Source: Candidatus Zapsychrus exili (GTDB lineage: Bacteria; Omnitrophota; Gorgyraeia; Zapsychrales; Zapsychraceae). From it: DNA of 37,481 nucleotides. Every line of letters begins with the position of its first letter. The stretch's first letter is position 1. The notes under the pieces were generated by a model that worked only from the letters and a program-made list of their open reading frames with translations, was not told the origin of the DNA and did no database searches. The DNA is taken from the NCBI GenBank assembly GCA_030765585.1, contig JAVCCJ010000075.1, positions 1 through 37,481 on the forward strand, given 5' to 3'. Made by a program: the position numbers and the translations under genes. This document shows positions 5,705 through 35,798 of the stretch, one piece after another.

Positions 5705-5721
5705 AATAAGTTTAAAATATT

Positions 5722-6957
5722 ATGCCTACTAAAATATCTAAGACTAAAAAAACAAGCATAAGCCAAGCGCAAGAGCTTGTTATCTTAAGAGAAATTGTTG
5801 AGATTACAAATTCTAAGTTTGATTTGGAGTCTATTCTTGATCAAGTGGTTAAGATTGTAAATAATACGATGAAGTCAGATTCTGTATTTGTTTATTTGTT
5901 TGATGAACAGTATAAAGAATTTGTTTTGATGGCATCAAAAACACAGCATAAAAAAGAGTTGGGTAAAGTATCTTTGAAAATGGGAGAAGGCATTACGGGT
6001 TGGGTTGCTCGCAAGAACGAATCAGTTGCGATTAGCAAAAATGCATACAAAGATAAGCGTTTTAAGAGTTTTGATGTTCTTCCGGAAGATAGATATGAGG
6101 CTTTTCTTTCTGTCCCGATTATATATAAAGCAAAATCTATCGGCGTTGTTAATATTCAACATAAAAAATCTCATGAATATACAAAGGCTACAGTTGATCT
6201 AATATCTCTTGTTGCAAAACAGATGGGTGGTGTTATTGATAATGCTAGACTTTATGAAGAGACAAAAAAGAAGGCTTTACAGTTTGATAGCTTAGTTAAG
6301 GTAAGCTATTCAATTACATCAGAGGCATACTTAGAGGAAATTCTAAGTTTAATTGTTGTCGTTACCGCCGAGATGTTAAATTCTAAAATATGCTCCATTA
6401 TGCTCTTAGATAAAAAAGGAAAAGACTTAGCTATAAAAGCAACGCAATTTTTAAGTAAGAATTATACAAAGAAGCCGAATGTTAAATTAGATTCAAGTAT
6501 AAGCGGAGAGGTTTTTAAGACAAAGAGTCCCATATCTATTTATGACGTTCGAGAAGAGAAAAAATATGGTTATCGTAATATAGCTGTTAAAGAAAGTTTA
6601 ACGTCAATGCTGTCTGTTCCTATGGTTGTAAAAGATAAGGCAATTGGTATTGTTAATGTTTACACAAAGAAACCACATGTCTTTACAAAAGAAGAAATTG
6701 ATATATTGCAGATGGTAGCTAATCAAGCAGCGGTTGCAGTTGAAAATACAAAGCTTATGGAAGAAACTTTAAAGGCGAAGGAAGCCTTGGAAACTAGAAA
6801 GATTGTTGAGCGCGCAAAAGGGGTATTGATGAAAATAAGCGGCTTAAACGAACAAGAAGCATATAAATTGATTCATAAAAAAAGTATGGATTCTTGCAAA
6901 ACAATGAAAGATGTTGCCGAATCTATACTTCTTATGGAAGAGTTTCGTAAGAAATAA
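5722..6957 (+). CDS. GAF-GAF-ANTAR RNA-binding antitermination regulator
   Basis: Two GAF domains (GEGITGWVA...FLSVPI...IGVVN; SMLSVPM...IGIVN...NQAAVAVEN). C-terminal ANTAR signature LETRKIVERAKGVLM...EQEAYKLIHKKSMD...MKDVAESIL. Confidence 0.92.
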   Translation: MPTKISKTKKTSISQAQELVILREIVEITNSKFDLESILDQVVKIVNNTMKSDSVFVYLFDEQYKEFVLMASKTQHKKELGKVSLKMGEGITGWVARKNESVAISKNAYKDKRFKSFDVLPEDRYEAFLSVPIIYKAKSIGVVNIQHKKSHEYTKATVDLISLVAKQMGGVIDNARLYEETKKKALQFDSLVKVSYSITSEAYLEEILSLIVVVTAEMLNSKICSIMLLDKKGKDLAIKATQFLSKNYTKKPNVKLDSSISGEVFKTKSPISIYDVREEKKYGYRNIAVKESLTSMLSVPMVVKDKAIGIVNVYTKKPHVFTKEEIDILQMVANQAAVAVENTKLMEETLKAKEALETRKIVERAKGVLMKISGLNEQEAYKLIHKKSMDSCKTMKDVAESILLMEEFRKK

Positions 6958-6972
6958 AAAAAGGGTGAAAAT

Positions 6973-7332
6973 ATGTTTATTAAGATATTAGGTTGGATTT
7001 GGTTGATAATGGGAATAACTTTCTTAATAAAACCAGAATGGTGTAAATCATATCTCCAGAATAAGGGTATAAAGAAAATAAAAAAGGTTTTAATGGGGAT
7101 AACTATTGTTATAAGCATTTGGCTTATAACTGCAAGTTTTCAATTTTCGGGCATTACTTCAAAGGTTTTGATAGTTTTGGGAATTATTGGAGTAATTAAA
7201 GCATTTATGTTTTTGCGAGGCACAATAGCTGATAAAATGATTAAATTTTTTGCTGACGAACCTCTTTCTTTCTTTAGAATTGCAGCGTGTGGACATATTA
7301 TACTTGCTCTAGTTATAATTTTTATAAAATAA
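6973..7332 (+). CDS. Small integral membrane protein (about 4 TM), function unknown
   Basis: 119 aa with four hydrophobic segments; SD-like GGGTG upstream. Confidence 0.7.
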   Translation: MFIKILGWIWLIMGITFLIKPEWCKSYLQNKGIKKIKKVLMGITIVISIWLITASFQFSGITSKVLIVLGIIGVIKAFMFLRGTIADKMIKFFADEPLSFFRIAACGHIILALVIIFIK

Positions 7333-7360
7333 TTTTTTGACCCCGTGTATTAAAAAACAT

Positions 7361-7389
7361 TTGACAAATAATTTATTTTATTGTATATT
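7361..7389 (+). promoter_or_regulatory. Sigma70 promoter upstream of the ANTAR/terminator array
   Basis: TTGACA (7361-7366), 17-nt spacer, TATATT (7384-7389). Confidence 0.8.
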
Positions 7390-7399
7390 TTAGACAGTT

Positions 7400-7451
7400 G
7401 GGCAAAGAAGTCCTTTTTAAAAACAAAGATGTTTTTGAAAAGGTTTTTTTT
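7400..7451 (+). promoter_or_regulatory. ANTAR-type dual hairpin fused to intrinsic terminator 1
   Basis: GGGC-AAAGAA-GTCC (7400-7413) and AAAAAC-AAAGAT-GTTTTT (7419-7436); 13-bp terminator stem 7412-7443 followed by T8. Confidence 0.7.
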
Positions 7452-7502
7452 ATTTTTATTATTCAATTGTTTGTCTTTTGACGGATTAAACAATTGGTTA
7501 GA

Positions 7503-7552
7503 GACGATGACGTCCTCTTTTAAGGTATAATTCCTTTAAAGAGGATTTTTTT
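7503..7552 (+). terminator. Intrinsic terminator 2 overlapped by a single ANTAR-like hexaloop hairpin
   Basis: GAC-GATGAC-GTC (7503-7514) overlaps the stem TCCTCTTTTAAGG/CCTTTAAAGAGGA (7513-7545), which is followed by T7. Confidence 0.65.
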
Positions 7553-7634
7553 ATTTAGCACAGAAGCTAAATAAACTGGACAAAGCAGTCCTTCTTACAA
7601 GCTTGACATAAAAGCTTGAGTGGAGGACTTTTTT
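7551..7634 (+). promoter_or_regulatory. Canonical ANTAR dual-hairpin motif overlapping intrinsic terminator 3
   Basis: TTATTTAGC-ACAGAA-GCTAAATAA (7551-7574) and GGAC-AAAGCA-GTCC (7578-7591). The second hairpin overlaps the 5' arm of terminator AGTCCTTC...GGAGGACT plus T-run (7587-7634). Confidence 0.8.
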
Positions 7635-7803
7635 GTAGATGAGTAAGCGGCTCCTAAGTTAACGAAGATAAGGTTCTTATGATTTAAAAAATAATCACAA
7701 GGAACCTTTGCTTTTCTGAAAAAGTTGAAAGGCAACAAAGGTTTCTGGGGCTTAAAAGAGTAATTATGGGGTAAATAAGTTTTTATTGAATAAAAGCCCA
7801 AGT

Positions 7804-7812
7804 TGCTATAAT
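7804..7812 (+). promoter_or_regulatory. Possible second, proximal glnA promoter (extended -10)
   Basis: TG-c-TATAAT at 7804-7812; TTGAAT at 7786-7791 is only 15 nt away, so the -35 is doubtful. Confidence 0.45.
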
Positions 7813-7861
7813 ATTAATAATTATATTAAGATTATAAACTATTAAGTTTAGGGAGAGCAAT

Positions 7862-9955
7862 ATGAAAGAAAAAGAAGATGAGATAAAATCAGTTCCAGAT
7901 TATTATGGAGAAAATGTATTTAGTTTAAAGACTATGCGTAATTATCTCTCAGACAAGGCGTATAAAACTTTAAGCGCCACTATAAGAGAGGGTGGAGATT
8001 TAGATCCTAAGATTGCAGATGAAGTGGCTGACGCAATGAAAACTTGGGCTGTATCTAAAGGGGCCACACATTTTACTCATTGGTTTCAACCCTTAACTGG
8101 TACGACAGCAGAAAAACATGACTCTTTTATTTCTCCAGATGGAGAAGGTGGAGTTATGTTGAAGTTTTCTGGTAGAGAACTTATACAGGGTGAGCCGGAT
8201 GCATCAAGTTTTCCTTCAGGAGGTTTAAGACCTACTTTTGAAGCTCGTGGATATACAGGATGGGATCCAACTTCGCCTGCTTTTATTAAGGAGGGACCGA
8301 AATGTTCTACGCTTTGCATCCCGACATACTTTGTTGGTTGGAGAGGCGAAGCTTTAGACAAGAAGACTCCATTATTGCGTTCTATGAAAGTTCTTTCTAG
8401 GGAAGTTTGTAGATTGGGAAAGTTGTTTGGTATTAAATCAGAAGGAAAACAAGCTTATGCAACATTAGGTGGAGAACAAGAGTATTTTTTAATTGATAGA
8501 GATTATTATTACCAAAGGATAGATCTTATACAAACAGGTCGCACATTGTTTGGTAAAGAGCCTGCAAAACATCAGCAAATGTCTGATCATTATTTTGGGG
8601 CTATAAAGAGTAGAATAATGGGTTTTATGGAAGACCTAGATAGAGAAATGTGGAGATTAGGTGCTCCTATTAGAACCCGCCATAATGAAGTTGCGCCTGC
8701 TCAGTTTGAAGTAGCTCCTGTTTTTGAAAGTTTAAATTTAGCAGTTGATCATAATATGCTTTGTATGGAAGTATTGCAAAAAGTTGCTGAGAAGCACGGA
8801 CTTGTTTGTCTTCTTCATGAAAAGCCATTTGCAGGCGTAAATGGTTCAGGAAAGCATAATAATTGGTCAGTTGTTGGTCCAGATGGGAAGAACTGGTTAT
8901 CACCTGGAGATAATCCGCATGAGAACGCAAAGTTTTTAATTATGATTTGCGCTGTTATAAAAGCGGTTGATTCGTATGCTGAACTTCTTCGTGCATCTAT
9001 TGCCTCAGCAGGTAACGATCACAGGCTTGGTTCTCATGAAGCACCACCAGCTATTATTTCAATTTTCTTAGGAGATCAGTTAAATGATATTATTGAGCAA
9101 ATTGAAAAAGGTGGGGCAAAGAGTTCGAAGAAAAGTGGAGAGCTTAAGATAGGTGTAGATGTTTTGCCTGATCTTCCTAAAGATGCAACTGATAGAAATA
9201 GAACTTCTCCTTTTGCTTTTACAGGAGCAAAGTTTGAATTTCGTGCAGTTGGTTCAAATGCGTCCTTAGCTGGTCCAAATATTGTATTAAATACAATTGT
9301 GGCTGAGGCTCTTGATGAGATTTGTGCTGAACTTGAAAAAGCTTCGAAGAAAGAATTCAATGTAGCAGTACATAAGTTATTACAAAAAATAATTAAGAAA
9401 CATAAAAGAGTAATATTCAATGGTGATAATTATACTGATGCTTGGGCGAAAGAAGCGAAATCAAGAGGTTTACCAAATCTTAAGACAACGCCAGAAGCTT
9501 TAGAAGCTTTAAAGGATTCTAAAGTTCTTAGTCTTTTTGAAAAGCATGCTGTTTTAACTAAAACAGAGCTCATGTCTCGTTATGAAGTTTATAAAGAGGT
9601 ATATGACACAACTATTGATTATGAAGCAAAACTTGCTGCTGATATGGTTAAGACAAGCATACTTCCTGTCGCTATTAATTATCAGGAAGAACTTGCTAAC
9701 GCGATAGGATCAGTTGAAGCTACTAATAAAGTAAAATCAACGTCTTCTCGTAAACTTCTTCGCAAGATAACAAGTTTAGTTGAAGAAGCTATAGAGCGTG
9801 TTCATAAATTAGATACAGCTATAGAAAAAGGAGCATCGCTTAAGTCGAAAGCAGCTATGGTTGATTTAAGAAAAACAATTGATGCTCTTGAAGGTTTAGT
9901 GCCAGCCGATATGTGGCCACTTCCTTCATATGCAGAGATGTTGTTTATATTATAA
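7862..9955 (+). CDS. glnA: Glutamine synthetase type III
   Basis: 697 aa; ATHFTHWFQPLTGTTAEKHDSF, GEPDASSFPSGGLRPTFEARGY, HEKPFAGVNGSGKHNNWS, DRNRTSPFAFTG, WPLPSYAEMLF. Confidence 0.96.
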   Translation: MKEKEDEIKSVPDYYGENVFSLKTMRNYLSDKAYKTLSATIREGGDLDPKIADEVADAMKTWAVSKGATHFTHWFQPLTGTTAEKHDSFISPDGEGGVMLKFSGRELIQGEPDASSFPSGGLRPTFEARGYTGWDPTSPAFIKEGPKCSTLCIPTYFVGWRGEALDKKTPLLRSMKVLSREVCRLGKLFGIKSEGKQAYATLGGEQEYFLIDRDYYYQRIDLIQTGRTLFGKEPAKHQQMSDHYFGAIKSRIMGFMEDLDREMWRLGAPIRTRHNEVAPAQFEVAPVFESLNLAVDHNMLCMEVLQKVAEKHGLVCLLHEKPFAGVNGSGKHNNWSVVGPDGKNWLSPGDNPHENAKFLIMICAVIKAVDSYAELLRASIASAGNDHRLGSHEAPPAIISIFLGDQLNDIIEQIEKGGAKSSKKSGELKIGVDVLPDLPKDATDRNRTSPFAFTGAKFEFRAVGSNASLAGPNIVLNTIVAEALDEICAELEKASKKEFNVAVHKLLQKIIKKHKRVIFNGDNYTDAWAKEAKSRGLPNLKTTPEALEALKDSKVLSLFEKHAVLTKTELMSRYEVYKEVYDTTIDYEAKLAADMVKTSILPVAINYQEELANAIGSVEATNKVKSTSSRKLLRKITSLVEEAIERVHKLDTAIEKGASLKSKAAMVDLRKTIDALEGLVPADMWPLPSYAEMLFIL

Positions 9956-9970
9956 AAACAGTATTTATCT

Positions 9971-10003
9971 TTTAGCGGGTGGTGGTTTAAGCTGCCCGCT
10001 AAA
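9971..10003 (+). terminator. Stem-loop between glnA and nadE (weak terminator or mRNA stabiliser)
   Basis: TTTAGCGGGTGGT / GCTGCCCGCTAAA inverted repeat; poor U-tract. Confidence 0.5.
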
Positions 10004-10029
10004 TATTATTCGTCAATCAATATTAAAAT

Positions 10030-11670
10030 ATGAGAGTCGCTTTAGCACAAATTAATCCAACAGTCGGAGATTTATCTGGCAATAAGCAAAAGGTCATTAG
10101 TTTTATAAAAAAAGCTAAGAGCTTTGATGCAGATATTGTTGTGTTTCCTGAGCTTGTGATATCTGGATATCCGCCGCAGGATCTTATGTATAAAGAACAT
10201 TTTATTAAGAATAATATTAAGACTCTTAATTCGATAGTTAAAGGCATCAAGGGCATCACAGCCATAGTTGGTTTTGTTGATACTGACAGACAAAAAAATA
10301 TTTATAATGCTGCAGCTGTTATATCTGACGGGAAATTAAAAGGAGTTTATCATAAGCAAGAGCTTCCTAATTATGGTGTATTCGATGAGAAAAGATATTT
10401 TAAAAAAGGTGGAAAGGCTAAAAGTTTTTCTTTAAAAGGCGTAAAATTTGGATTAAGTATTTGTGAAGACATTTGGATTGATAATGGGCCATGTAAGCTT
10501 CAAGCGAAATCAGGTGCAAAAGTTATTTTCAATATATCAAGTTCTCCTTATGACCTTGGCAAGTTAAAAGAAAGGGAAAGCCTTTTAAAGAAACGCGCTA
10601 AGGAAACTAGAACGTTTATTTGTTATACGAATTTAGTTGGTGGACAGGATGAACTTGTTTTTGATGGAGGAAGCATTATTGTTGATCCTGGCGGTAACAT
10701 TGTCGCATCTGGAAAGTTATTTGAAGAAGATTTAGTTGTCTATGATTTGCCATTGTTAGATGTAAAAAAGAAAAAAGATTTATGCTCATCAAATACAAAA
10801 CATTTATTTAAGAAGATTAATAAAACAGAACGTATTTACAAGGCATTGGTTTTAGGGACTAGGGATTATATAAAAAAGAATGGTTTTGAAAAGGTTGTTA
10901 TTGGGCTAAGTGGAGGAATAGATTCAGCTCTTGTTGCTACAATAGCAGCTGATGCAATAGGGAGCGCAAATGTTATTGGAATTTCAATGCCATCGAGATA
11001 TACGTCAAAATCTACAAAATCTGATGCTAGTAAGTTTGCTAAGAATCTTGGAATTGATTTTAAAGAGATAGCGATCGAAGATACATTTAAAGTGTATTTG
11101 AAGACTTTAGCTTGTGATTTTAAAGGCAAGAAATCGGATATTACTGAGGAGAATATTCAGGCTCGTATTCGTGGCAATATATTGATGGCGCTATCTAATA
11201 AGTTCGGGTGGATAGTTTTAACAACAGGTAACAAAAGCGAGACTGCTGTTGGATATTGCACATTGTATGGAGATATGTCTGGAGGTTTTGCTGTAATTAA
11301 AGATTTGCTTAAAACAAAAGTATATGAATTGGCAAAAATGAGAAATGCAATAGTAGGTACAGATATCATTCTTAAGTCAATTATAGAGCGTGCGCCAACA
11401 GCTGAATTGAGGAATAATCAGAAAGATCAAGATACTTTGCCGCCTTATGATGTTTTAGATGATATATTAGTTGAATATATAGAAAAGCATAAATCAGTTT
11501 TGCAAATTACAAAGAATAAATATAGTAGATCGATGGTTGAGGACGTTATAAGCAAAGTAGATAGAAGCGAGTATAAGAGAAGGCAGGCTCCACCTGGAAT
11601 TAAAATAACGCAGCGCTCATTTGACAAAGATTGGCGACTTCCTATTACAAATAAATATAAAGGATTTTAG
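10030..11670 (+). CDS. nadE: Glutamine-dependent NAD+ synthetase
   Basis: Nitrilase domain (VFPEL, LPNYGVFDEKRYF, ICEDIW) plus synthetase domain (GLSGGIDSA, ENIQARIRG, TTGNKSE, EYKRRQAPPG). Confidence 0.96.
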   Translation: MRVALAQINPTVGDLSGNKQKVISFIKKAKSFDADIVVFPELVISGYPPQDLMYKEHFIKNNIKTLNSIVKGIKGITAIVGFVDTDRQKNIYNAAAVISDGKLKGVYHKQELPNYGVFDEKRYFKKGGKAKSFSLKGVKFGLSICEDIWIDNGPCKLQAKSGAKVIFNISSSPYDLGKLKERESLLKKRAKETRTFICYTNLVGGQDELVFDGGSIIVDPGGNIVASGKLFEEDLVVYDLPLLDVKKKKDLCSSNTKHLFKKINKTERIYKALVLGTRDYIKKNGFEKVVIGLSGGIDSALVATIAADAIGSANVIGISMPSRYTSKSTKSDASKFAKNLGIDFKEIAIEDTFKVYLKTLACDFKGKKSDITEENIQARIRGNILMALSNKFGWIVLTTGNKSETAVGYCTLYGDMSGGFAVIKDLLKTKVYELAKMRNAIVGTDIILKSIIERAPTAELRNNQKDQDTLPPYDVLDDILVEYIEKHKSVLQITKNKYSRSMVEDVISKVDRSEYKRRQAPPGIKITQRSFDKDWRLPITNKYKGF

Positions 11671-11708
11671 AAGTAAGGTAAGAGGTAAAGGGTGAAAGGC
11701 AAAAGTAT

Positions 11709-11826
11709 TGTCATTCCGGTTTTTTGCTTGCAAAAAGACCGGAATTTCCTTAATAAAAATATTAGACTCCTACTCGTAAAGGGACGTGGTCCCAACGGGA
11801 TTTTACGTGCCTTTGTAGGAATGATA
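11709..11826. repeat. REP/REPIN-like palindromic element of the GTCATTCC...GGAATGA type
   Basis: Terminal inverted repeat TGTCATTCC / GGAATGATA enclosing two hairpins (11713-11745 and 11768-11820). Confidence 0.55.
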
Positions 11827-11840
11827 GCAAAGAAAATAAA

Positions 11841-16373: not shown

Positions 16374-16401
16374 GATCAAAGGTAGGGGTAAATAAGAAAA
16401 G

Positions 16402-17829
16402 ATGGGCGATATAAAAGGTTTCATGAAATATGAAAGACAGGATTTACAAAAAGAGCCTGTTGAGGTGCGCTTAAAACATTGGAAAGAGTTTACAAAAGAT
16501 CTTTCTGAAGAAGAGCTAAAAAATCAAAGTGCTCGCTGCATGGATTGTGGCATACCTTTTTGTCATTGGAAATGTCCTGTTACGAACATCATTCCAGATT
16601 TTAATGATTTTGTTTATCAGGGAAGATGGAAAGAGGCTGTTAAGCGATTGCTTGAAACAAACAATTTTCCTGAGTTTACAGGTAGGGTTTGTCCTGCGCC
16701 TTGCGAGAATTCCTGTGTTTTAGCTATAAACCAGCCGGCTGTTACAATAAAAAATATTGAGCTCGCAATTATTGAGAAGGCATATCGAGAGGGATGGATT
16801 AAACCAAATCCTCCAAAAGCACTTAGCGGCAAGAAAGTGTCAGTTGTTGGCTCTGGTCCTGCTGGGCTTGCCTGTGCTGATCAGCTTAGGAAATTTGGGC
16901 ATAAGGTTACTGTTTATGAAAAAAATGAAGATGTTGGCGGGATTTTAACTTTGGGTATACCTGATTATAAGCTAGAAAAACGAGTGGTTGAAAGACGGAT
17001 AGAGCTTATGTGTCAAGAAGGAGTTGTTTTTAGAACAGGAGCTCATGTAGGTGTTGATATTAAACTAGAGTATCTTCGAAAGAGAGATGATGCTGTAGTT
17101 TTGACAGGTGGAGCAGAAAATGCAAGAGGATTAAATGTTCAAGGAAAAGAGCTTAAAGGAATATATCAGGCGATGGAATATCTTACTCAGCAAAATAGGG
17201 TGAATAAAGGAAATAAGATAGACGCAAAGACTCACATTGTTGCAAAAGGAAAAGATGTTATTGTTTTAGGCGGTGGAGACACTGGTTCTGATTGTGTGGG
17301 TACGGCTAATAGGCAGGGGGCAAAGTCTGTTAAACAATTTGAAATTATGCCTAAGCCTCCAGAGACAAGAGCGGATGATAATCCTTGGCCAGAGTGGGCA
17401 AATATATATAGAGAAAGCACATCTCATCAAGAAGGCGTTGAACAAGAATATTGCGTTATGACAAAAGCTTTAACTGGAGACAATGGAAAGCTTAAGAAAC
17501 TTCATGCAGTGCGTTTAGAGTATGGCGAAAAAGATCCAGAAACTGGACGTCGCGGTTTTAAAGAAATACCAGGTTCAGAGTTTGAGGTTGATTGTGATTT
17601 AGTATTTCTTGCGATGGGATTTTTAGGACCAGTTAAAGATGGTATGATAGAAGAGTTGGGATTAGAACTAACAGAACGTGGTAATGTAAGAACAGATGAT
17701 GATTATAAAACGAGCGTAGAAGGTATTTTTTCTGCTGGAGATATGCGAACAGGACAATCTTTAGTTGTCAAAGCCATTGATGAAGGACGATCCGCGGCAG
17801 AGAGTGTTAATAATTGGCTAATGAAATAA
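16402..17829 (+). CDS. gltD: Glutamate synthase small subunit
   Basis: RCMDCGIPFC, NNFPEFTGRVCPAPCE, GSGPAGLA, GGGDTGSDC, GDMRTGQSLVV; follows gltB. Confidence 0.96.
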   Translation: MGDIKGFMKYERQDLQKEPVEVRLKHWKEFTKDLSEEELKNQSARCMDCGIPFCHWKCPVTNIIPDFNDFVYQGRWKEAVKRLLETNNFPEFTGRVCPAPCENSCVLAINQPAVTIKNIELAIIEKAYREGWIKPNPPKALSGKKVSVVGSGPAGLACADQLRKFGHKVTVYEKNEDVGGILTLGIPDYKLEKRVVERRIELMCQEGVVFRTGAHVGVDIKLEYLRKRDDAVVLTGGAENARGLNVQGKELKGIYQAMEYLTQQNRVNKGNKIDAKTHIVAKGKDVIVLGGGDTGSDCVGTANRQGAKSVKQFEIMPKPPETRADDNPWPEWANIYRESTSHQEGVEQEYCVMTKALTGDNGKLKKLHAVRLEYGEKDPETGRRGFKEIPGSEFEVDCDLVFLAMGFLGPVKDGMIEELGLELTERGNVRTDDDYKTSVEGIFSAGDMRTGQSLVVKAIDEGRSAAESVNNWLMK

Positions 17830-17888
17830 GAAGCAGGGAATGAAAGCAATAAATATAATACAAAACAATCCATTTTAAGAGGAAAAAT

Positions 17889-19394
17889 ATGAAAGTATAT
17901 TTAGCAGGTTTTAATGTTGATACAGCTGTTCTAGAAGAATTACAAAAAAAGGCAGAGCCTAGAGAAGATGTCACACCCGAAGTTATATCTGCTGCATATG
18001 CCAGAATAAGTAGAGATCCGAGAAAAATTAACGAGATAAGAGAGGCTGCTCGAGGAGAAGTTGAGCGTTCGCGCAAGTCTAACTCAACAATCATATTTAA
18101 AATGGGGCATCATTCAGTTGCTGAGCATGCTGTTTTTAATTTGGATGTGATAGGTCTTTCAAGATTTTGCATGGAAGATTTAGAAAAATTTCGCCTATGT
18201 TCTTATACAGAAAAGTCTCAAAGATATATAACCCTTGATAATGATTATGTTGTGCCGAAAGAAATAAAAGACACAAATTTAGAGAGTAAATTTGTCGATA
18301 TGATTCAAAAACAAAATGAGGCATATTTTGTTCTTTTTGAAAAATTGAAGAAACATGTTTTTGAAAAACATTCTGATTTAGCTCTTGATTCAAAGAATCA
18401 TAGTTTACTAGAGGGATGGGCAAAAGAAGACGCTAGATATATTACGGCTTTGGCAACTGAATCTCAAGTAGGATTAACGGTTAATGCTCGTAATTTTGAG
18501 CTTATGTTAAGAAGATTTGCGTCACATCCGCTAGCAGAGGTTAAGCAGCTTGGTCGACAACTGTATGAGAAAATAGAAAAGGTTGCTCCATCAATTGTAC
18601 TTTTTCATCAAGAAAATGATCGAGATAGTAAAACTTTTTCTGATTTAAAAGAAGTTGCAAATAAAATAATAAATGATTCTGGTGAATCTACAAAACAATC
18701 AAAAGAGGTTGAGTTAGTTGAATATACAAAAGAAGGCGATCTCATTGTTGCAGCATCTTTGTTGCATGTTTCAACTAAACAGCCGTATGAAAAATGTAAG
18801 GACATCGTAAGAAATCTTTCTAGGGAAGAATTAGAAAAAATATTTAAAACAGCATGGGGGAATATGCAATTTTATGATTCTATGCTTCGCGAGTTTGAAT
18901 ATGTGAACCTTACCTTTAATGTTGAATTATCTTCTGCATGTTTTGGCCAACTTAAGCGTCATAGAATGTCAACAATAACAGCGCAACCTTATGATATAGA
19001 TTTAGGTATAACAATTCCTGATAGAATTAAAGAAATTGGCGCTGATGGATATTTTAAAGAAATAGTTGAACGGACAAATGAAGTTTATAAAGAGTTAAAA
19101 GCTCAAGTGCCAGAAGTAGCTCCATATATTTTAACAAATGCGCATAGAAAGCGCGTATTAATAAGAGTAAATGCACGCGAACTTTATCATATATCTCGTT
19201 TAAGAGAAGATGCCCATGCCCAGTGGGATATACAAAATGTTTCTTGTGATATGGTAGCACAAGCCAAAGAGGTTATGCCGCTAACTTTTGGTCTTATTGG
19301 TGGAAAAGATAAATATAATGAGATTTTTAAGAACATTTATGGCAAATTGCCAAAAGTAACAGAAGCTGTTTTGCCTGCGGCAAGGAAGATATAA
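17889..19394 (+). CDS. thyX: Flavin-dependent thymidylate synthase, long tandem-domain form
   Basis: GHHSVAEH, SYTEKSQRY, KEDARY and NARNF in the first half; QLKRHR, NARELYH and AQWDI in the second half. Confidence 0.85.
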   Translation: MKVYLAGFNVDTAVLEELQKKAEPREDVTPEVISAAYARISRDPRKINEIREAARGEVERSRKSNSTIIFKMGHHSVAEHAVFNLDVIGLSRFCMEDLEKFRLCSYTEKSQRYITLDNDYVVPKEIKDTNLESKFVDMIQKQNEAYFVLFEKLKKHVFEKHSDLALDSKNHSLLEGWAKEDARYITALATESQVGLTVNARNFELMLRRFASHPLAEVKQLGRQLYEKIEKVAPSIVLFHQENDRDSKTFSDLKEVANKIINDSGESTKQSKEVELVEYTKEGDLIVAASLLHVSTKQPYEKCKDIVRNLSREELEKIFKTAWGNMQFYDSMLREFEYVNLTFNVELSSACFGQLKRHRMSTITAQPYDIDLGITIPDRIKEIGADGYFKEIVERTNEVYKELKAQVPEVAPYILTNAHRKRVLIRVNARELYHISRLREDAHAQWDIQNVSCDMVAQAKEVMPLTFGLIGGKDKYNEIFKNIYGKLPKVTEAVLPAARKI

Positions 19395-19429
19395 ATATTT
19401 TAGCGCTAAATGTTAAAACAAGAAAATAT

Positions 19430-19458
19430 TTGACAAGAATGTGCTTGGAGAGTATATT
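19430..19458 (+). promoter_or_regulatory. Sigma70 promoter for the nfnAB-orf-gdhA unit
   Basis: TTGACA (19430-19435), 17-nt spacer, TATATT (19453-19458). Confidence 0.8.
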
Positions 19459-19468
19459 AACTTTGCTT

Positions 19469-19524
19469 GATAAGGCGATGAAGTCTTATTGGTAATCTTT
19501 TTATACAGGTTTCAAAGAGGGAAC
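19469..19524 (+). promoter_or_regulatory. ANTAR-like hairpin pair in the nfnA leader
   Basis: GATAAGGC-GATGAA-GTCTTATT (19469-19490) and GTTTC-AAAGAG-GGAAC (19509-19524). Confidence 0.6.
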
Positions 19525-19563
19525 TGATCTGATATTCTAGATTCTTGTGTCCATAAAGTAAAC

Positions 19564-19601
19564 ATCCTCAAATAACTGCTAAAGGTTTTTGAGGGTTTTT
19601 T
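19564..19601 (+). terminator. Leader (attenuator) terminator upstream of nfnA
   Basis: ATCCTCAAA...TTTGAGGGT stem followed by a T-run, between the promoter and the ATG at 19637. Confidence 0.65.
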
Positions 19602-19636
19602 ATGCCTAAAAACTTAGTATTAAAATTTCTAATAAA

Positions 19637-20500
19637 ATGAACAAAATTATTCAAAAAATACAATTGTCAGAAGAGGTTTTTAAGATTATGGTTGAAGCTC
19701 AACTAATATCTGAAGAATGTCTTGCTGGCCAATTTATACTTTTGCAGGTTGATGAGAATGGAGAAAGGATTCCTTTAACTATTGTAGATTCTGATAAAGA
19801 AAAAGGAACGATTGATCTTATATTTCAGGCTGTAGGCAAAACAACACATTTACTTGCCGAGCTAAATGTTGGCGATGAAATATTAAATCTTGTAGGTCCT
19901 TTAGGAACGCCAACACATATTGAAAAATTAGGAACTGTTGTGTGTGTAGGTGGTGGTATTGGGGTCGCGCCAGCATATCCTATTGCAAAGGCAATGAAAG
20001 CTGCAGGAAATAAACTTATTGTAATTATCGGTGCGCGCAATAAAGATCTGATTATCCTTGAAGAAGAAATGAAAGAAATAGCTGATGAGCTAATAATATG
20101 TACTGATGACGGTTCTTATGGACAGAAAACTTTGGTTACTGGTCCTTTAAAGGAATTATGCGAAAAAGATAATAAGCCTGATTTGGTTGTTGCTATAGGT
20201 CCTCCTATTATGATGAAGTTTTGTGCTGAAACTACTAGGCCTTATGAGGTCTCTACAGTTGTTTCTCTTAATACTATTATGATTGATGGAACCGGTATGT
20301 GTGGAGGCTGTCGTGTAACGGTAGGGGATAAAGTTAAATTTGTATGTGTCGACGGCCCAGAATTTGATGGACATCTTGTTGATTTTGATAATATGATGCA
20401 ACGTCTTAAAACGTATAAAAAACATGAGGACAAAGCTCATGAGCAATGTCATTTAGATATGAAAATAAAGAGTAAACAAAATAGAAATGAACCTGCCTAA
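19637..20500 (+). CDS. nfnA: NfnA/SudB-like FAD/NAD-binding [2Fe-2S] subunit of electron-bifurcating transhydrogenase
   Basis: GERIPLTI, VGPLG, GGGIGVAP, MIDGTGMCGGCRV, CVDGPEFDGH. Confidence 0.85.
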   Translation: MNKIIQKIQLSEEVFKIMVEAQLISEECLAGQFILLQVDENGERIPLTIVDSDKEKGTIDLIFQAVGKTTHLLAELNVGDEILNLVGPLGTPTHIEKLGTVVCVGGGIGVAPAYPIAKAMKAAGNKLIVIIGARNKDLIILEEEMKEIADELIICTDDGSYGQKTLVTGPLKELCEKDNKPDLVVAIGPPIMMKFCAETTRPYEVSTVVSLNTIMIDGTGMCGGCRVTVGDKVKFVCVDGPEFDGHLVDFDNMMQRLKTYKKHEDKAHEQCHLDMKIKSKQNRNEPA

Positions 20501-21926
20501 TCATAAAGAATTAAAGTCCAAAGAACGTATGGCTATTCCTGCTCAAGAGATGCCTGTGCAAGATGCTAAAGTGCGAAGAGATAATATGAGCGAGGTTGCT
20601 TTAGGATATACTCAAGAACAGGCGCAGCTAGAAGCTATGCGATGTCTTCAGTGTAAAACAGCTCCTTGTGTAGCAGGTTGCCCTGTTCAAATAGATATTC
20701 CAGGATTTATTGGTGCAATAGCAAATGGAGATAATAAAGCTGCAATAGACATTCTTAAACAAAATAGTTTGTTACCTGCTGTTTGTGGAAGAGTTTGTCC
20801 TCAAGAAACGCAATGTCAGGCGCCATGTACTGTTGGGAAGAGCCTTAAAGATGTAAACAAAGCTGTTTCTGTTGGAAGACTTGAGCGTTTTGTTGCTGAT
20901 TGGGAACGCGATAATAATATGGTTACATCTCCAGAAGTAAAGAAAGAGACTGGCAAAAAAGTTGCAATTGTTGGTAGCGGTCCTGCAAGTATAACAGTCG
21001 CAGCTGATGTAAGACGCCAAGGACACTCAGTTACAATGTTTGAAGCATTTCATAAAACAGGTGGAGTTATGGTTTATGGTATTCCTGAGTTTCGTTTGCC
21101 TAAAAAGATTGTACAAATGGAAATAGATTCTCTTGAGGCGATGGGGGTTGAAGTTAAGACTAATTTTGTTGTTGGCCGCACAAGAAAACTTTTAGACTTT
21201 ATGGAAAAAGATGGTTTTGATGCAATATTTGTTGGAACAGGAGCAGGTTTGCCGCGCTTTATGAACATTGAGGGAGAAAATCTTGTAGGTGTTTTTTCTG
21301 CAAATGAATATTTGACTCGTACAAATTTAATGAAAGCTTATGATAAAAAAAATTCTCATACTCCGATTTTTAATTCGCGTAAGGTTGCTGTATTTGGTGG
21401 CGGTAATGTAGCGATGGATGCAGCACGAACGGCGGTACGTCTTGGCGCAGATGAAGTACATCTTATATATAGGCGTACAGAAGTTGAGATGCCAGCACGG
21501 GTAGAAGAAGGTCATCATGCAAAAGAAGAAGGAGTTATTTTTCATTTACTTGAAAATGCGAAACGTATTTTAGGAGACGAGAACGGTTGTGTGAAGGCAA
21601 TAGAGTGTCTGCGTTATAAATTAGGAGAGCCAGATGATTCAGGAAGACGTCGTCCAGTAGTTGTTGAGGGGAGCGAATTTATTATAGATTTGGATACTGT
21701 TATTGTTGCGATTGGTAATGATTCAAATCCTTTAATAAAACAAACAACGCCAGATTTAGAAACCAACAAGTGGGGCAATATTATTGCAGATGAAAATTGT
21801 AAAACCTCAATTGATGGTATTTATGCTGGAGGAGATATTGTTCTAGGAGCAGCGACAGTTATTTTGGCAATGGGTCAAGGAAGAGCTGCTGCAAAAGCTA
21901 TAAATGATTATTTGAATATTTTGTGA
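20487..21926 (+). CDS. nfnB: NfnB/SudA-like large subunit (GltD-like; often annotated as homotetrameric glutamate synthase)
   Basis: RCLQCKTAPCVAGCPV, CGRVCPQETQC, YGIPEFRLPK, GGGNVAMDAARTA, GAATVILAMG; overlaps nfnA by 14 nt. Confidence 0.85.
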   Translation: MNLPNHKELKSKERMAIPAQEMPVQDAKVRRDNMSEVALGYTQEQAQLEAMRCLQCKTAPCVAGCPVQIDIPGFIGAIANGDNKAAIDILKQNSLLPAVCGRVCPQETQCQAPCTVGKSLKDVNKAVSVGRLERFVADWERDNNMVTSPEVKKETGKKVAIVGSGPASITVAADVRRQGHSVTMFEAFHKTGGVMVYGIPEFRLPKKIVQMEIDSLEAMGVEVKTNFVVGRTRKLLDFMEKDGFDAIFVGTGAGLPRFMNIEGENLVGVFSANEYLTRTNLMKAYDKKNSHTPIFNSRKVAVFGGGNVAMDAARTAVRLGADEVHLIYRRTEVEMPARVEEGHHAKEEGVIFHLLENAKRILGDENGCVKAIECLRYKLGEPDDSGRRRPVVVEGSEFIIDLDTVIVAIGNDSNPLIKQTTPDLETNKWGNIIADENCKTSIDGIYAGGDIVLGAATVILAMGQGRAAAKAINDYLNIL

Positions 21927-21954
21927 AATAAACAACATTTTCAAAGGAGACGAA

Positions 21955-22440
21955 ATGGGCAGATTTACTAAAGATGGAAGATTAGTTATCCCATTAAAGG
22001 AAAGAAAAAAGGTTAAAGCTAAAGAGGATGAGGTTAGGTATGTAATAGATAAGGCATATTGTCCTAAGGGCTGTAACATAATCGATCCTGAGCATAAAAT
22101 AAATAATTATCCTGGATTACGCATTAAATTTAAGAGGCCAAAATCAGAAGGAGAGTTTGTTCTTTCTGCTATTGAAGGAGATTTTGATAAAATAATTTTA
22201 TCAGGAGAGCTAAAAAATAAAGTTAAAGATGACCTTTTTTGCCCTCACTGTGGATGTATGTTTGAGAAGTTAATTGCTTGTAATTGTAAGCCTGATGCAG
22301 ATATGGTTGTAATAGGTTTAACTCCTAAGTTAGATTTTAACAATGCAATAACATTTTGCAATGTTACTGGATGCACAAACGGTACATTTGTTAAATCAGG
22401 AGATGCTATTAGACACATTAGGTTAGGGTTTTCGTATTAA
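21955..22440 (+). CDS. Cys-rich hypothetical protein, putative metal-binding
   Basis: CPKGC, CPHCGC, CNC, FCNVTGC; SD AAGGAG upstream. Confidence 0.75.
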   Translation: MGRFTKDGRLVIPLKERKKVKAKEDEVRYVIDKAYCPKGCNIIDPEHKINNYPGLRIKFKRPKSEGEFVLSAIEGDFDKIILSGELKNKVKDDLFCPHCGCMFEKLIACNCKPDADMVVIGLTPKLDFNNAITFCNVTGCTNGTFVKSGDAIRHIRLGFSY

Positions 22441-22475
22441 AAGAAAAAATAATTTTTTAAAAAAAGGAGATAAAA

Positions 22476-23816
22476 ATGGCAGATTTGACCATAAAAGATT
22501 TTATGGATAAGGTAATTGCAAAAAATCCAGGCGAATCAGAGTTTCATCAAGCAGTTCAAGAAGTTGCAGAAGCAGTAATCCCTTTTATTAATAAAAATCC
22601 GAAGTACAGAGAAGCAAAGATTTTAGAAAGAATAGCAGAGCCAGAGAGAGTAATTATGTTTCGCGTTCCTTGGCTAGATGATAAGGGTGAAGTTCAAATA
22701 AATAGAGGTTTTCGTGTCGAAATGAATAGTGCTATTGGGCCTTATAAAGGAGGACTTCGTTTACATCCAACTGTTTATTTAGGTCTATTGAAATTTTTAG
22801 CTTTTGAGCAAGTATTCAAAAACAGCCTTACAACGCTTCCTATGGGTGGTGGTAAGGGTGGTTCTGATTTTGATCCTAAAGGAAAGTCAGATAATAAATA
22901 TATGAAGTTTTGTAAAAGATTTATGACAGAACCACAAAGACATATTGGACCTGACACTGATGTTCCTGCTGGAGATATTGGTACAGGAGGTCGTGAAATA
23001 GGCTTTATGTTTGGTCAATATAAAAGATTAAGAAATGAGTTTACAGGAATTCTTACAGGAAAAGGTTTAAATTGGGGTGGAAGTCTTATTCGTCCTGAAG
23101 CTACAGGTTACGGATGTGTTTATTTTACTGAAGAGATGTTAAAAGCAAAAGGTGATTCTCTTAAGGGTAAAGTTTGTACTATATCTGGATCAGGAAACGT
23201 TGCGCAATACACTGCTGAAAAAGTAAATCAATTAGGTGGAAAATGTGTTACTCTTTCAGATTCAGGTGGAACAGTTTATGATCCTGACGGAATAGATGCA
23301 GAAAAATTAGCATATGTTATGGAGCTAAAGAATGTAAAACGCGGCCGTATTAAAGAATACGCAGATAAATATGGTTGTAAATATCTTGAAGGTAAAAATC
23401 CTTGGAGTGTAAAATGTGACGTCGCTTTTCCATCTGCTACTCAAAATGAAATAAATGAAGCTGATGCAAAAGAATTAATCAAAAATGGTTGTATGGCTGT
23501 TGGAGAAGGCGCTAATATGCCAACAACTCCTGAAGGCGTAGAAGTTTTCCAAAAGGCTAAAATTTGTTATGGTCCTGGTAAAGCAGCTAATGCAGGTGGA
23601 GTTGCAACTTCTGGTTTAGAGATGTCTCAAAATAGTCAAAGACTTGCTTGGACTCGTGATGAAGTAGATACAAAATTACAAGGAATTATGGTAGCTATTC
23701 ATAAGCAATGTGAGAAATATGGTAAAGATGGCGACTATATAGATTACGTAAAAGGTGCTAATATTGGTGGCTTTGTAAAAGTTGCTGATGCTATGTTAGA
23801 CCAAGGCGTTGTTTAA
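22476..23816 (+). CDS. gdhA: NADP-type glutamate dehydrogenase
   Basis: GPYKGGLR, FEQVFKNSLTTLPMGGGKGGSDF, DVPAGDIG, RPEATGYG, SGSGNVAQY, GKAANAGGV. Confidence 0.96.
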   Translation: MADLTIKDFMDKVIAKNPGESEFHQAVQEVAEAVIPFINKNPKYREAKILERIAEPERVIMFRVPWLDDKGEVQINRGFRVEMNSAIGPYKGGLRLHPTVYLGLLKFLAFEQVFKNSLTTLPMGGGKGGSDFDPKGKSDNKYMKFCKRFMTEPQRHIGPDTDVPAGDIGTGGREIGFMFGQYKRLRNEFTGILTGKGLNWGGSLIRPEATGYGCVYFTEEMLKAKGDSLKGKVCTISGSGNVAQYTAEKVNQLGGKCVTLSDSGGTVYDPDGIDAEKLAYVMELKNVKRGRIKEYADKYGCKYLEGKNPWSVKCDVAFPSATQNEINEADAKELIKNGCMAVGEGANMPTTPEGVEVFQKAKICYGPGKAANAGGVATSGLEMSQNSQRLAWTRDEVDTKLQGIMVAIHKQCEKYGKDGDYIDYVKGANIGGFVKVADAMLDQGVV

Positions 23817-23835
23817 ATAATAGCTGAAGTTATAT

Positions 23836-23869
23836 GCCCCCGTTAGAGTAATTTCTGACGGGGGTTTTT
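23836..23869 (+). terminator. Intrinsic terminator after gdhA
   Basis: GCCCCCGTTAGA / TCTGACGGGGGT stem followed by a T-run. Confidence 0.85.
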
Positions 23870-24606: not shown

Positions 24607-24634
24607 TTGACAAAATAGAACTTAATGATATATT
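24607..24634 (+). promoter_or_regulatory. Sigma70 promoter for carAB-purF-pyrG
   Basis: TTGACA (24607-24612), 16-nt spacer ending TGa, TATATT (24629-24634). Confidence 0.65.
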
Positions 24635-24815
24635 GATGCAGGCAGCACAAGATAATTAAAAGCAGTAACTCCAATAAGGTTTTTTAAAAGCGTTTCTTGT
24701 AGCATTGAAGTTATAAGATTTATGCTAGCTACAAGAAATCTTTGTTTCTTTAAAAGAAATATTTTAGACTACGAAGCTTTCCTGCCCTAAAACCTTTATT
24801 TAAACAGAAAAATAG

Positions 24816-34297: not shown

Positions 34298-34316
34298 GTG
34301 TATATTCCTTTGATTC

Positions 34317-35789: not shown

Positions 35790-35798
35790 ATTTATTTT

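Follow-up and report, generated by a model that had tools for sequence, protein, structure and literature searches.

The tandem-GAF ANTAR gene at the glnA locus

The window analysed here, the first 37,481 bases of contig C59 (JAVCCJ010000075.1) of Candidatus Zapsychrus exili (Omnitrophota), carries the gene for a putative RNA-binding regulator with two GAF domains and one ANTAR domain upstream of glnA, which encodes a type III glutamine synthetase (GS), and of the leader that precedes glnA. The metagenome-assembled genome (MAG) comprises 2.04 Mb in 129 contigs, with 34% G+C and 96% completeness; throughout, G### denotes sampled genomes (G000 being the present genome), C## contigs and L### loci. 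As assigned by Pfam, the plus strand encodes in order a HAD hydrolase, a GH65 enzyme, an AAA_26/DRTGG protein, the GAF-GAF-ANTAR regulator, a 119-amino-acid (aa) open reading frame (orf), the glnA leader and glnA, continues 3′ of glnA with nadE, gltB, gltD, a double ThyX-like gene, the nfnA leader, nfnA, nfnB, orf161 and gdhA, and ends 3′ of gdhA with a TPR protein gene, carA, carB, a purF-like gene and pyrG.

5722-6957, plus strand: GAF-GAF-ANTAR regulator, paralogue 1, 411 aa (Pfam, PDB matches, AlphaFold2 (AF2) model, Foldseek)
Residues of the regulator: GAF1 ~17-176, helix 155-199, GAF2 ~204-342, helix 323-373, ANTAR 352-403
7862-9955, plus strand: glnA, type III glutamine synthetase (Pfam), the probable target of three leader units

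The AAA_26/DRTGG gene (4604-5704, plus strand) ends only 17 nucleotides (nt) 5′ of the regulator gene, so that paralogue 1 appears to have no leader of its own; the order HAD, GH65, DRTGG, regulator recurs in G001, G005 and L046. The sequence-only reading of this DNA had described an ANTAR protein with two GAF domains and no receiver domain just upstream of glnA-nadE-gltBD, and this assignment stands: the ANTAR domain (PF03861) scores 72.3 bits against a cut-off of 27.3 and spans profile positions 3-54 of 54, while Pfam returns no Response_reg match in this protein or in a second paralogue encoded on contig C12, whose ANTAR domain scores 66.5 bits.

That reading had also found no ntrBC, glnR or PII gene in the window, and indeed none occurs among its 25 annotated open reading frames; the one PII gene found genome-wide, glnK, lies on C12, and the glnA of the window is the only GS gene found in the genome. 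Neither a sigma-54 DNA-binding domain nor a GlnD/GlnE domain was found, negatives that at 96% completeness are to be read as 'not found' and not as 'absent'. No match of bacterial enhancer-binding protein (bEBP) or NtrC grade was found in the genome, only weak AAA+ matches to the sigma-54 activator family, the best at E 1.4e-7 (801-aa and 873-aa frames).

Three hairpin-terminator units in the glnA leader

The glnA leader (7333-7861, 530 nt) contains three tandem units, E1 to E3, each of which consists of a hexaloop hairpin, P1, of the form G-G/A-C, A/G-N-N-G-N-N, G-U-C-C, the 3′ arm of which is at the same time the 5′ base of an intrinsic terminator. The E values given below were obtained with R1, a covariance model built on 60 units from the present genome and its relatives.

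7361-7389, plus strand: promoter-like site of the glnA leader, TTGACA-17-TATATT
7400-7451, plus strand: unit E1, R1 E 3.2e-9; P1 GGGC-AAAGAA-GUCC at 7400-7413, terminator 7412-7443 followed by U8
7503-7552, plus strand: unit E2, R1 E 1.6e-7; P1 GAC-GAUGAC-GUC at 7503-7514, terminator 7512-7546 followed by U7
7578-7636, plus strand: unit E3, R1 E 1.1e-5; P1 GGAC-AAAGCA-GUCC at 7578-7591, terminator ~7587-7630 followed by U6

On folding, the P1 hairpins reach −4.6 to −5.3 kcal/mol, compared with −15.8 to −25.9 kcal/mol for the terminators (E1, −4.6 versus −17 kcal/mol; E3, −5.2 versus −25.9 kcal/mol). With P1 so weak and the terminator so much stronger, termination would be the default for the RNA alone. 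The leader as a whole folds much better than shuffled sequences (z −7.58; none of 100 shuffles as good), and its units score 36-50 bits with R1. Loop position 4 is a G in all three units, whereas position 1 is an A in E1 (AAAGAA) and E3 (AAAGCA) and a G in E2 (GAUGAC). The apex of the E1 terminator is itself a second hexaloop hairpin, AAAAAC-AAAGAU-GUUUUU, located 6 nt after P1. No Rfam family reaches its gathering score anywhere in the window except for two tRNAs; a sub-threshold snoRNA match on the minus strand of the glnA leader was put down to chance.

The units are restricted to nitrogen and regulator leaders

Both strands of the genome were scanned with a regular expression (regex) for G-R-C, R-N-N-G-N-N, G-U-C and a terminator overlapping the 3′ arm. 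The core motif occurs at 66 sites, six of which have an overlapping terminator, three in the glnA leader and three on C12, so that all six fall within three leaders, each belonging to nitrogen or regulator genes; in five genomes shuffled locally, the scan returned 1, 1, 1, 0 and 1 units. The 3′ arm of P1 forms the 5′ base of the terminator in 6/6 units. None of the six is located in front of a sigma-factor gene, although no search aimed at such genes was made. A genome search with R1 recovered the same six units (E 6e-10 to 2e-5), with the next best match at E 0.19; as the six are training sequences of R1, this result bears on specificity rather than on discovery. Among the loose motif matches, we also note a tandem repeat with a ~37-nt unit containing CCGUAAGG-CGAAGAGGUUGUAAUCCGUAAGG (G000:C54, ~10135-10215, plus strand).

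The sequence-only reading had proposed a scan for further motifs, for example before amtB/glnK, and such units are indeed found on C12. There, the minus strand carries two units, the gene for paralogue 2 (GAF-GAF-ANTAR, 425 aa, 68% identical to paralogue 1), one further unit together with a terminator-less hairpin, and then orf263, amtB, glnK and ptsP. Given the two units 5′ of its gene, paralogue 2 appears to be autoregulated. The terminator-less hairpin, AGAC-GAUGAU-GUCU, lies at C12:8067, ~55 nt 5′ of a start codon. The product of orf263 (G000:C12 7216-8007, minus strand), called porin-like, is a signal-peptide protein of 263 aa without a family; glnK (PII) adjoins amtB, and ptsP encodes a GAF-EI protein.

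In the relative G001, both paralogues are located in a single supercluster on one contig, which begins with GH65, DRTGG and regulator a, goes on with units, amtB-glnK, further units, amtB-glnK-glnA, again units and regulator b, and 3′ of regulator b continues with a unit, orf263-amtB-glnK-ptsP and nadE. Two regulator copies are also present in G005 and G019, and the two-paralogue state is thus not peculiar to the present genome.

Architecture of the regulator

Residues 17-176 of the regulator (GAF1) match the GAF domain of PtsP in 3ci6 (E 1.4e-25, 33% identity) and 3trc (E 8.5e-18), with a Foldseek template modelling (TM) score of 0.87 against 3ci6 (TMt 0.87-0.88), and are 32% identical to the GAF domain of the genome's own PtsP. 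For GAF2, the match is 5w10 (E 7.7e-10), a GAF domain annotated as cGMP-specific phosphodiesterase. Rv1626, NasR and EutV align with the ANTAR part (PDB matches including 1s8n, 4akk and 6wsh), whose Tyr381 (...EEEAYQML...) aligns with Tyr164 of EutV (6wsh), an equivalence read off the alignment by hand; in the EutV-RNA structure, Tyr164 stacks upon the loop base G4 (PMC8934654).

The AF2 model of the regulator, computed as a single chain from a 34-sequence alignment (mean predicted local distance difference test score 82, predicted TM score 0.54), contains a continuous helix spanning residues 323-373, followed by helices 377-391 and 395-410. Foldseek places the tandem-GAF modules of PDE5A, PDE2A, PDE6 and CyaB2 at the top of the matches to this model (3lfv, E 4e-18, TMq 0.56; further matches 1ykd, 1mc0 and 3ibj), and the modelled layout GAF1-helix-GAF2-helix-ANTAR would correspond to that of dimeric tandem-GAF regulators. 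Judged from its sequence, the protein resembles the receiver-ANTAR regulators (GnfR, EutV, Rv1626/PdtaR) at its predicted RNA-binding end but is not a member of that group.

Conservation in the order and the phylum

Full-length orthologues with 63-75% identity are present in 36 of the 40 other sampled genomes of the order, and fragments in two more. The neighbourhoods of orthologues, another check that the sequence-only reading had named, point to nitrogen genes: amtB/glnK or glnA lies within 10 kb downstream of the regulator in 12/20 public loci, while most of the remaining eight end at a contig edge or showed none of the query genes. The commonest order is regulator, (orf263), amtB, glnK, glnA, nadE, (gltB).

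R1 matches (E <= 0.001) occur in 39/41 genomes of the order, with 1 to 6 units each, many of these matches being training sequences. Independent cases are provided by 20 regions with R1 matches outside the training contigs and places, of which 19 were readable and one holds only 264 bases. Of these regions, 16 are positioned directly 5′ of amtB-glnK or glnA; porin genes (BBP2 and Alginate_exp families) follow in two cases, carAB in one and a glycosyltransferase cluster in one. In G003 (L106, G003:C35, minus strand), two units precede the genes for a nirB-like reductase (domains Pyr_redox_2, Fer2_BFD and NIR_SIR_ferr) and a nirC-like formate/nitrite transporter, and this pair heads a row that continues with a further unit and then amtB-glnK-glnA. 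By this gene order, nitrite assimilation would be wired into the same control in G003.

Across 24 loci, 43 of 55 regex units have orf263, amtB, glnA or a regulator gene no more than 700 nt downstream; three more fall inside coding matches, seven before unidentified genes and two before a DRTGG gene, the last of which look like coding false positives. When the loop was left free (N6) in 79 loci plus the window (110 matches merged to 100 by identical 40-mers, with coding false positives kept), an A at position 1 was observed in 64/100 and a G at position 4 in 81/100 distinct matches. A second G4 hexaloop at the terminator apex is present, by hand reading in the relatives, in 23/37 units with UCC-U/C-type terminators compared with 3/16 of the UCCG type. 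The assignment of UCCUCUU-type and UCCGAC-type terminators to the two paralogues was dropped, as genomes in which one regulator gene was found (e.g. L042) have both types in one leader.

Outer-membrane-type genes head ammonium-uptake operons behind ANTAR units on C12 and at L109 and L124. They include orf263 on C12, the gene for a BBP2 porin (G011) and that for an Alginate_exp-like barrel (G027), and may point to a porin dedicated to ammonium or some other compound of nitrogen.

Within the phylum, a homologue is present in 92/151 sampled genomes (E <= 1e-50). Outside the order it is mostly ~240 aa long and matches residues 185-410, that is GAF2 plus ANTAR; GAF1 has been added at the N-terminus in the order and in three further genomes of the sample. 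Across the phylum, the family core is GAF2-ANTAR, and the GAF domain of this core is not of the PtsP type. The single-GAF form (20 loci) adjoins gdhA (seven adjacent, one further away), nadE (six), and amtB-glnK or glnA. Six of the seven gdhA leaders read beside it contain GGAU-AAUGAC-GUCC-type hairpins, with varying loops, that overlap a terminator, and a seventh unit of this type precedes two glnK-like genes in L098.

The nfnAB-orf161-gdhA leader and glutamate dehydrogenase

A second leader of interest, 240 nt in length, lies 5′ of nfnA.

19430-19458, plus strand: promoter-like site of the nfnA leader, TTGACA-17-TATATT
19467-19492, plus strand: hairpin A, AUAAGGC-GAUGAA-GUCUUAU (−8.1 kcal/mol, z −3.25)
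19508-19525, plus strand: hairpin B′, GGUUUC-AAAGAG-GGAACU, loop with A1 and G4
~19564-19602, plus strand: nfnA leader terminator, CCUCAAA..UUUGAGGG followed by U6, conserved with the G015 leader
19637-20500 and 20487-21926, plus strand: nfnA and nfnB, candidate regulon members
21955-22440, plus strand: orf161, 161 aa, family-less, candidate regulon member
22476-23816, plus strand: gdhA, candidate regulon member

The sequence-only reading had placed ANTAR-type hairpins plus leader terminators in front of both glnA and nfnAB-orf-gdhA. For glnA this is borne out by the three units, and the nfnA leader likewise has its hairpins and its terminator, but neither hairpin A nor hairpin B′ overlaps that terminator. 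The TTGACA/TATATT hexamers that it had noted in front of the hairpins of both leaders exist, but have been rejected as a regulon signature: they are near-consensus sigma-70 elements that also precede carA, and the leaders of the relatives show ordinary variants.

In a three-way alignment, the nfnA leader of the window is homologous to the leader of the orthologous operon in G015 (nfnA 80% identical) and to a leader in G001 located 5′ of a gene with a Glu_synthase domain and of gltB. Hairpin A is homologous to, and conserved in sequence with, hairpin A of both relatives. In G015, hairpin A is followed ~26 nt later by a full unit, GGGC-AAUGAU-GUCC-UCAAAUAA (R1 E 1e-9). The ancestral P1 is split in the window, where ~37-43 inserted nt lie between its GGG 5′ arm and its UCC 3′ arm; the last loop base and the 3′ arm of hairpin B′ contain the GGG that aligns with this 5′ arm. 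The nfnA leader therefore looks, from its sequence, like a rebuilt copy that has lost the terminator-overlapping hairpin.

There is an even chance, in our estimate, that this leader is a decayed ANTAR leader whose terminator acts as a constitutive attenuator or answers another factor, in which case the regulon of the present genome would comprise only GS and ammonium uptake. The insertion that splits the P1 arms relative to G015 and G001 fits such decay, as does the R1 score of only 18 bits, compared with 36-50 bits for the glnA units, for which a 43-nt insertion had to be opened within the nfnA hairpin. The leader also folds no better than shuffled sequences (z −1.03), and an alternative GAGGG:UCCUC antiterminator pairing was rejected because, when forced, it lies 11.6 kcal/mol above the fold with the terminator and comes close to it (−19.2 versus −19.5) only as long as the 3′ arm of the terminator has not been transcribed. 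Decay is harder to reconcile with the two remaining ANTAR-type hexaloop hairpins (GAUGAA and AAAGAG), the first of which is conserved with G015 and G001, and with the placement of a strong terminator behind a strong promoter, which without relief would silence the operon. It also has to be set against the relatives, where full units precede nfnAB-gdhA or gdhA in G015, G033, G036 and G020 and a variant does so in G030, and against the full units before gdhA beside the single-GAF regulators of another class.

Within the order, gdhA was found in 12/41 genomes. The units before nfnAB-gdhA in G015, G033 and G036 are accompanied by the G030 variant at 18.7 bits with R1, and in G020 the unit before a monocistronic gdhA scores 16.8 bits, with a 12-bp terminator overlapping P1 that was read by hand. 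In G016, gdhA follows nadE within the cluster of the regulator. The gdhA of G035 has no unit, that of G005 follows a coding region, and no R1 match at E <= 1 was found in the fetched gdhA loci of G012, G019 and G002. The sequences thus favour glutamate dehydrogenase (GDH), together with NfnAB as a plausible NADPH supplier, as a recurrent regulon member in the lineage, although its membership is not demonstrable in the present genome. The regulon covering both routes of ammonium assimilation that the sequence-only reading had envisaged would therefore hold for the lineage through the GDH units of the relatives, but is unproven for this genome, where gltBD also has no unit: the gltB leader (11671-11840) holds no R1 unit at E <= 10, and two hairpins seen there by eye are not of the P1 type. 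A low-probability variant would reverse the sign at nfnAB-gdhA, protein bound to hairpin B′ sequestering GAGGG from the 5′ arm of the terminator, with GS on and GDH off.

The GDH link is the least anticipated part of the system, since Table S2 of PMC3369931 contains 25 mentions of glutamine synthetase and 18 of ammonium transporters and none of glutamate dehydrogenase. Within the operon itself, orf161 has no Pfam match even at E 0.1, and the corresponding gap in the nfnAB-gdhA operon of G015 is too short to hold it, so that orf161 looks like a recent insertion.

Relation to known antitermination systems

The closest tested system is GnfK/GnfR of Geobacter. The site of GnfR in Geobacter sulfurreducens is CAGGCAANGGCGCC, present in leaders with terminators that precede nifH, glnK, amtB and other genes (PMC2995071); GnfR binds this site and as an ANTAR protein relieves premature terminators in nitrogen-gene leaders, including those of glnK and amtB. 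The GnfR site is nearly the same hairpin as P1, with GGC, the hexaloop AANGGC and then GCC or GUC, and is likewise located in the 5′ part of terminator hairpins. In contrast, GnfR is a receiver-ANTAR protein that is phosphorylated by GnfK and stands under sigma-54 and GnfLM, whereas the present regulator has two GAF domains and no receiver, in a genome where sigma-54 was not found. The gdhA genes also differ, that of Geobacter being repressed by GnfM under nitrogen limitation, whereas the gdhA leaders of the Omnitrophota relatives carry the same unit as glnA.

ANTAR targets follow a rule of hexaloops with A1 and G4 (PMC3369931). The eut leaders of Enterococcus faecalis, bound by EutV/EutW, share such A1/G4 hexaloops with the units described here, as well as the exclusion of an intrinsic terminator, the presence of several terminators per locus, the G4-stacking tyrosine of the regulator and a second hexaloop 5-12 nt downstream, the last in 23 of the 37 UCC-U/C-type units, E1 among them. 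The geometry of P1, a 6-9-nt linker and P2, where a P2 is present, is canonical. The nesting of P2 differs: P2 shares terminator bases in eut, whereas here P2 forms the terminator apex and P1 shares the terminator base. Unlike in eut, two or three units follow each other in one leader, and the predicted sensor is a pair of GAF domains rather than a phosphorylated receiver.

NasR of Klebsiella oxytoca, a NIT-ANTAR protein, is a one-component antiterminator with a nitrogen-related target and a leader terminator (PMC7496416, PMC12591593). NasR, however, senses nitrate and nitrite through a helical NIT domain and acts on one target leader, nasF, transcribed under NtrC and sigma-54, whereas the regulator described here has GAF domains and a predicted multi-operon regulon. 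With PtsP (EI-Ntr; GAF domains in 3ci6 and 3trc; PMC4848567), the likeness lies in GAF1, and a ptsP gene encoding such a GAF domain is part of the C12 operon behind the units; the output of PtsP is autophosphorylation of a PTS enzyme, whereas that of the regulator is predicted to be RNA binding.

The sequence-only reading had pointed to clostridial NitR as a REC-ANTAR protein linked to glnA/GOGAT genes. ANTAR regulator genes adjoining glnA have been recorded in Firmicutes (PMC3369931, Table S2). The sequence-only reading did not know the GAF-GAF-ANTAR architecture as characterised, and the accessible literature agrees: no ANTAR protein with PAS or GAF domains had been characterised as of 2012 (PMC3369931), and the accessible part of PMC7496416 (2020) reports no characterised GAF-ANTAR protein and names only NasR and PAL as one-component ANTAR proteins. 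A 2025 review (PMC12591593) counts GAF-ANTAR among the abundant architectures and gives AmiR, NasR, EutV and Rv1626 as the studied cases in its accessible part, and SCO7423 of Streptomyces is mentioned only as an ANTAR-GAF protein of unknown function (PMC12838073). In the open literature, with subscription journals outside its scope, we found no characterised GAF-ANTAR protein, only mentions of uncharacterised genes; the terms ANTAR, glutamine synthetase and ammonium do not occur in PMC10066038.

A proposed one-component antitermination switch for nitrogen assimilation

We consider it quite probable that the GAF-GAF-ANTAR protein, together with the RNA hairpins and terminators, forms a one-component antitermination switch that turns on glnA and the ammonium-uptake genes; the RNA-level control of glnA by this protein that the sequence-only reading had put forward thus appears likely from the three units of the glnA leader. 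The proposal builds on the domain content of the protein, the RNA anatomy, the restriction of the units to nitrogen and regulator leaders and their co-conservation with the regulator gene, from which we infer as follows that the protein binds RNA, in which direction it would exert control and which ligand it would sense. Transcription from the strong sigma-70-type promoter would enter the glnA leader with its three intrinsic terminators in series. P1 would form just 5′ of each terminator and, as its GUCC 3′ arm is common to the terminator stem, would have to yield it by default, resulting in termination. A regulator dimer in the RNA-binding state would clamp P1 and, in E1, also the apical second hexaloop, thereby withholding GUCC from the terminator base and allowing the polymerase to read through into glnA; two or three units in series would multiply the effect. 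The same units would gate the gene of paralogue 2, in an autoregulatory manner, and the porin-like orf, amtB, glnK and ptsP on C12.

The GAF domains, in turn, would read the nitrogen status directly and set the RNA-binding state. A sensing of glutamine by GAF1 is plausible by analogy, with glutamine the best candidate ligand, because GAF1 is of the PtsP (EI-Ntr) type and glutamine has been reported to bind EI-Ntr's GAF domain (PMC4848567); high glutamine would then switch RNA binding off via GAF1. A different source of the signal, which we regard as improbable, would be PII: GlnK, which the regulon itself encodes, would associate with the GAF-ANTAR protein and determine whether the latter binds RNA, much as in AmiC-AmiR or NasS-NasT, with the GAF domains serving as docking or dimerisation modules. 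The location of glnK within the regulated operon, here and in most relatives, is compatible with such a partnership, and partner-controlled ANTAR proteins are known (PMC7496416, PMC3795266); as no GlnD was found, direct sensing of 2-oxoglutarate and ATP would fall to PII. Direct sensing is favoured by the closeness of GAF1 to a GAF domain with reported direct glutamine binding, and by the single-GAF form, which elsewhere in the phylum often lies beside gdhA or nadE without glnK nearby.

Several observations weigh against the antitermination switch. The terminator helix covaries strongly in the alignment of 60 units, but this is partly circular, since the unit filter required pairing. P1 is almost without covariation: two of its pairs never vary, one alternates between GU and AU, and a G-C pair is broken in 9/60 units. 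P1 is thus conserved as sequence, and it is by its resemblance to known ANTAR sites that it is taken to be a helix. The apical loops of E2 and E3 comprise 7 nt, so that within the window only E1 follows the 'dual hexaloop' rule, and the G-initial loops GAUGAC and GAUGAA depart from the A1 rule. The spacing of 20-40 nt from hairpin A to the next hairpin is not the canonical geometry, and EutV does not tolerate long linkers (PMC3369931, PMC8934654). G017 and G026 carry units, but no orthologue was found in these genomes (83% and 90% complete), and G028 has the regulator gene at a contig end and no unit was found there. No RNA sequencing runs are listed that contain window positions 5700-10100, which are present in three DNA runs labelled salt lake metagenome (shares 0.82, 0.13 and 0.05). 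Finally, the co-induction of GDH and GS that the leaders of the relatives would imply is the opposite of the reciprocal control in Geobacter (PMC2995071), and the signal may thus not be simple nitrogen limitation.

The lack of compensatory changes in P1 would also be expected if the GGRC-N6-GUCC element were a ligand-sensing RNA in its own right or were recognised by an RNA-binding protein other than the ANTAR protein, the latter acting elsewhere, for example on translation as in mycobacterial ANTAR targets. The terminator-less hairpin at C12:8067, near a start codon, would fit such translational control (bioRxiv 10.1101/660928). We nevertheless judge another recogniser to be very improbable: a hairpin of 14 nt leaves no room for a metabolite pocket, the glnA leader matches no Rfam family, and the loop rule A1/G4 is that of ANTAR targets, with the closest tested site, CAGGCAANGGCGCC of GnfR, being an ANTAR site in the terminator leaders of glnK and amtB (PMC2995071). 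In addition, gene and element co-occur across the order and are both missing in G024.

A far-reaching extension of the antitermination switch, which we put forward tentatively and hold to be less probable than not by a good way, is that the tandem-GAF ANTAR protein is the master nitrogen regulator of the order, replacing NtrBC/sigma-54, GlnR-type repressors and GlnD. It would read glutamine directly via its PtsP-type GAF domain and, with nascent RNA as its sole level of action, control every nitrogen entry point, namely porin/AmtB/PII, GS, GDH with NfnAB, nitrite reductase, carbamoyl-phosphate synthetase and its own gene.

Further features of the window

6973-7332, plus strand: hydrophobic 119-aa orf between the regulator and the glnA leader, without a family match
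9971-10003, plus strand: the terminator of glnA itself
10030-11670, plus strand: nadE, glutamine-dependent
11841-16373, plus strand: gltB
16402-17829, plus strand: gltD
23836-23865, plus strand: strong terminator 3′ of gdhA
24607-24634, plus strand: promoter-like site of the carA leader, TTGACA-16-TATATT

The 119-aa orf was not seen at the corresponding place in L037 and L050, where the gap measures ~360-390 nt. Directly 3′ of gltD and 5′ of the nfnA leader lies a gene for a 501-aa protein (17889-19394, plus strand) whose two Thy1 (ThyX) stretches make it a flavin-dependent thymidylate synthase duplicated in tandem within one chain. The carA leader (24607-24815, plus strand) contains a long hairpin, UUUCUUGUAGC...GCUACAAGAAA, with a U-rich tract after it, and has no ANTAR-type unit; despite its TTGACA/TATATT hexamers, no R1 match was obtained at E <= 10, whereas in G033 a unit precedes carAB. 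The carA leader may be a pyrimidine- or arginine-responsive attenuator. On the minus strand, positions 33368-36989 hold an operon for a FIST-domain protein, a GAF histidine kinase and a REC-GGDEF response regulator, which by its domains is predicted to be a separate sensory system making cyclic di-GMP.

Implications

Antitermination by ANTAR proteins and its link to nitrogen genes are known; what is new is the unstudied tandem-GAF sensor, the sensors of characterised ANTAR proteins in the accessible literature being receiver or pseudo-receiver, NIT and LOV domains. To this, the window adds the split arrangement of two paralogues, a test case for GDH/NfnAB and the apparently rebuilt nfnA leader. 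The system is compact and testable, with a 411-aa protein, 14-nt RNA sites, three terminators in a single leader and the hypothesis of glutamine as ligand of a PtsP-type GAF domain. Leaders with serial terminators, each served by a predicted protein site of its own, merit interest both with regard to graded (multi-step) attenuation and as building blocks in synthetic biology. If true, the proposed switch would provide a first picture of nitrogen control in an uncultured phylum in which neither sigma-54 nor GlnD has been detected.

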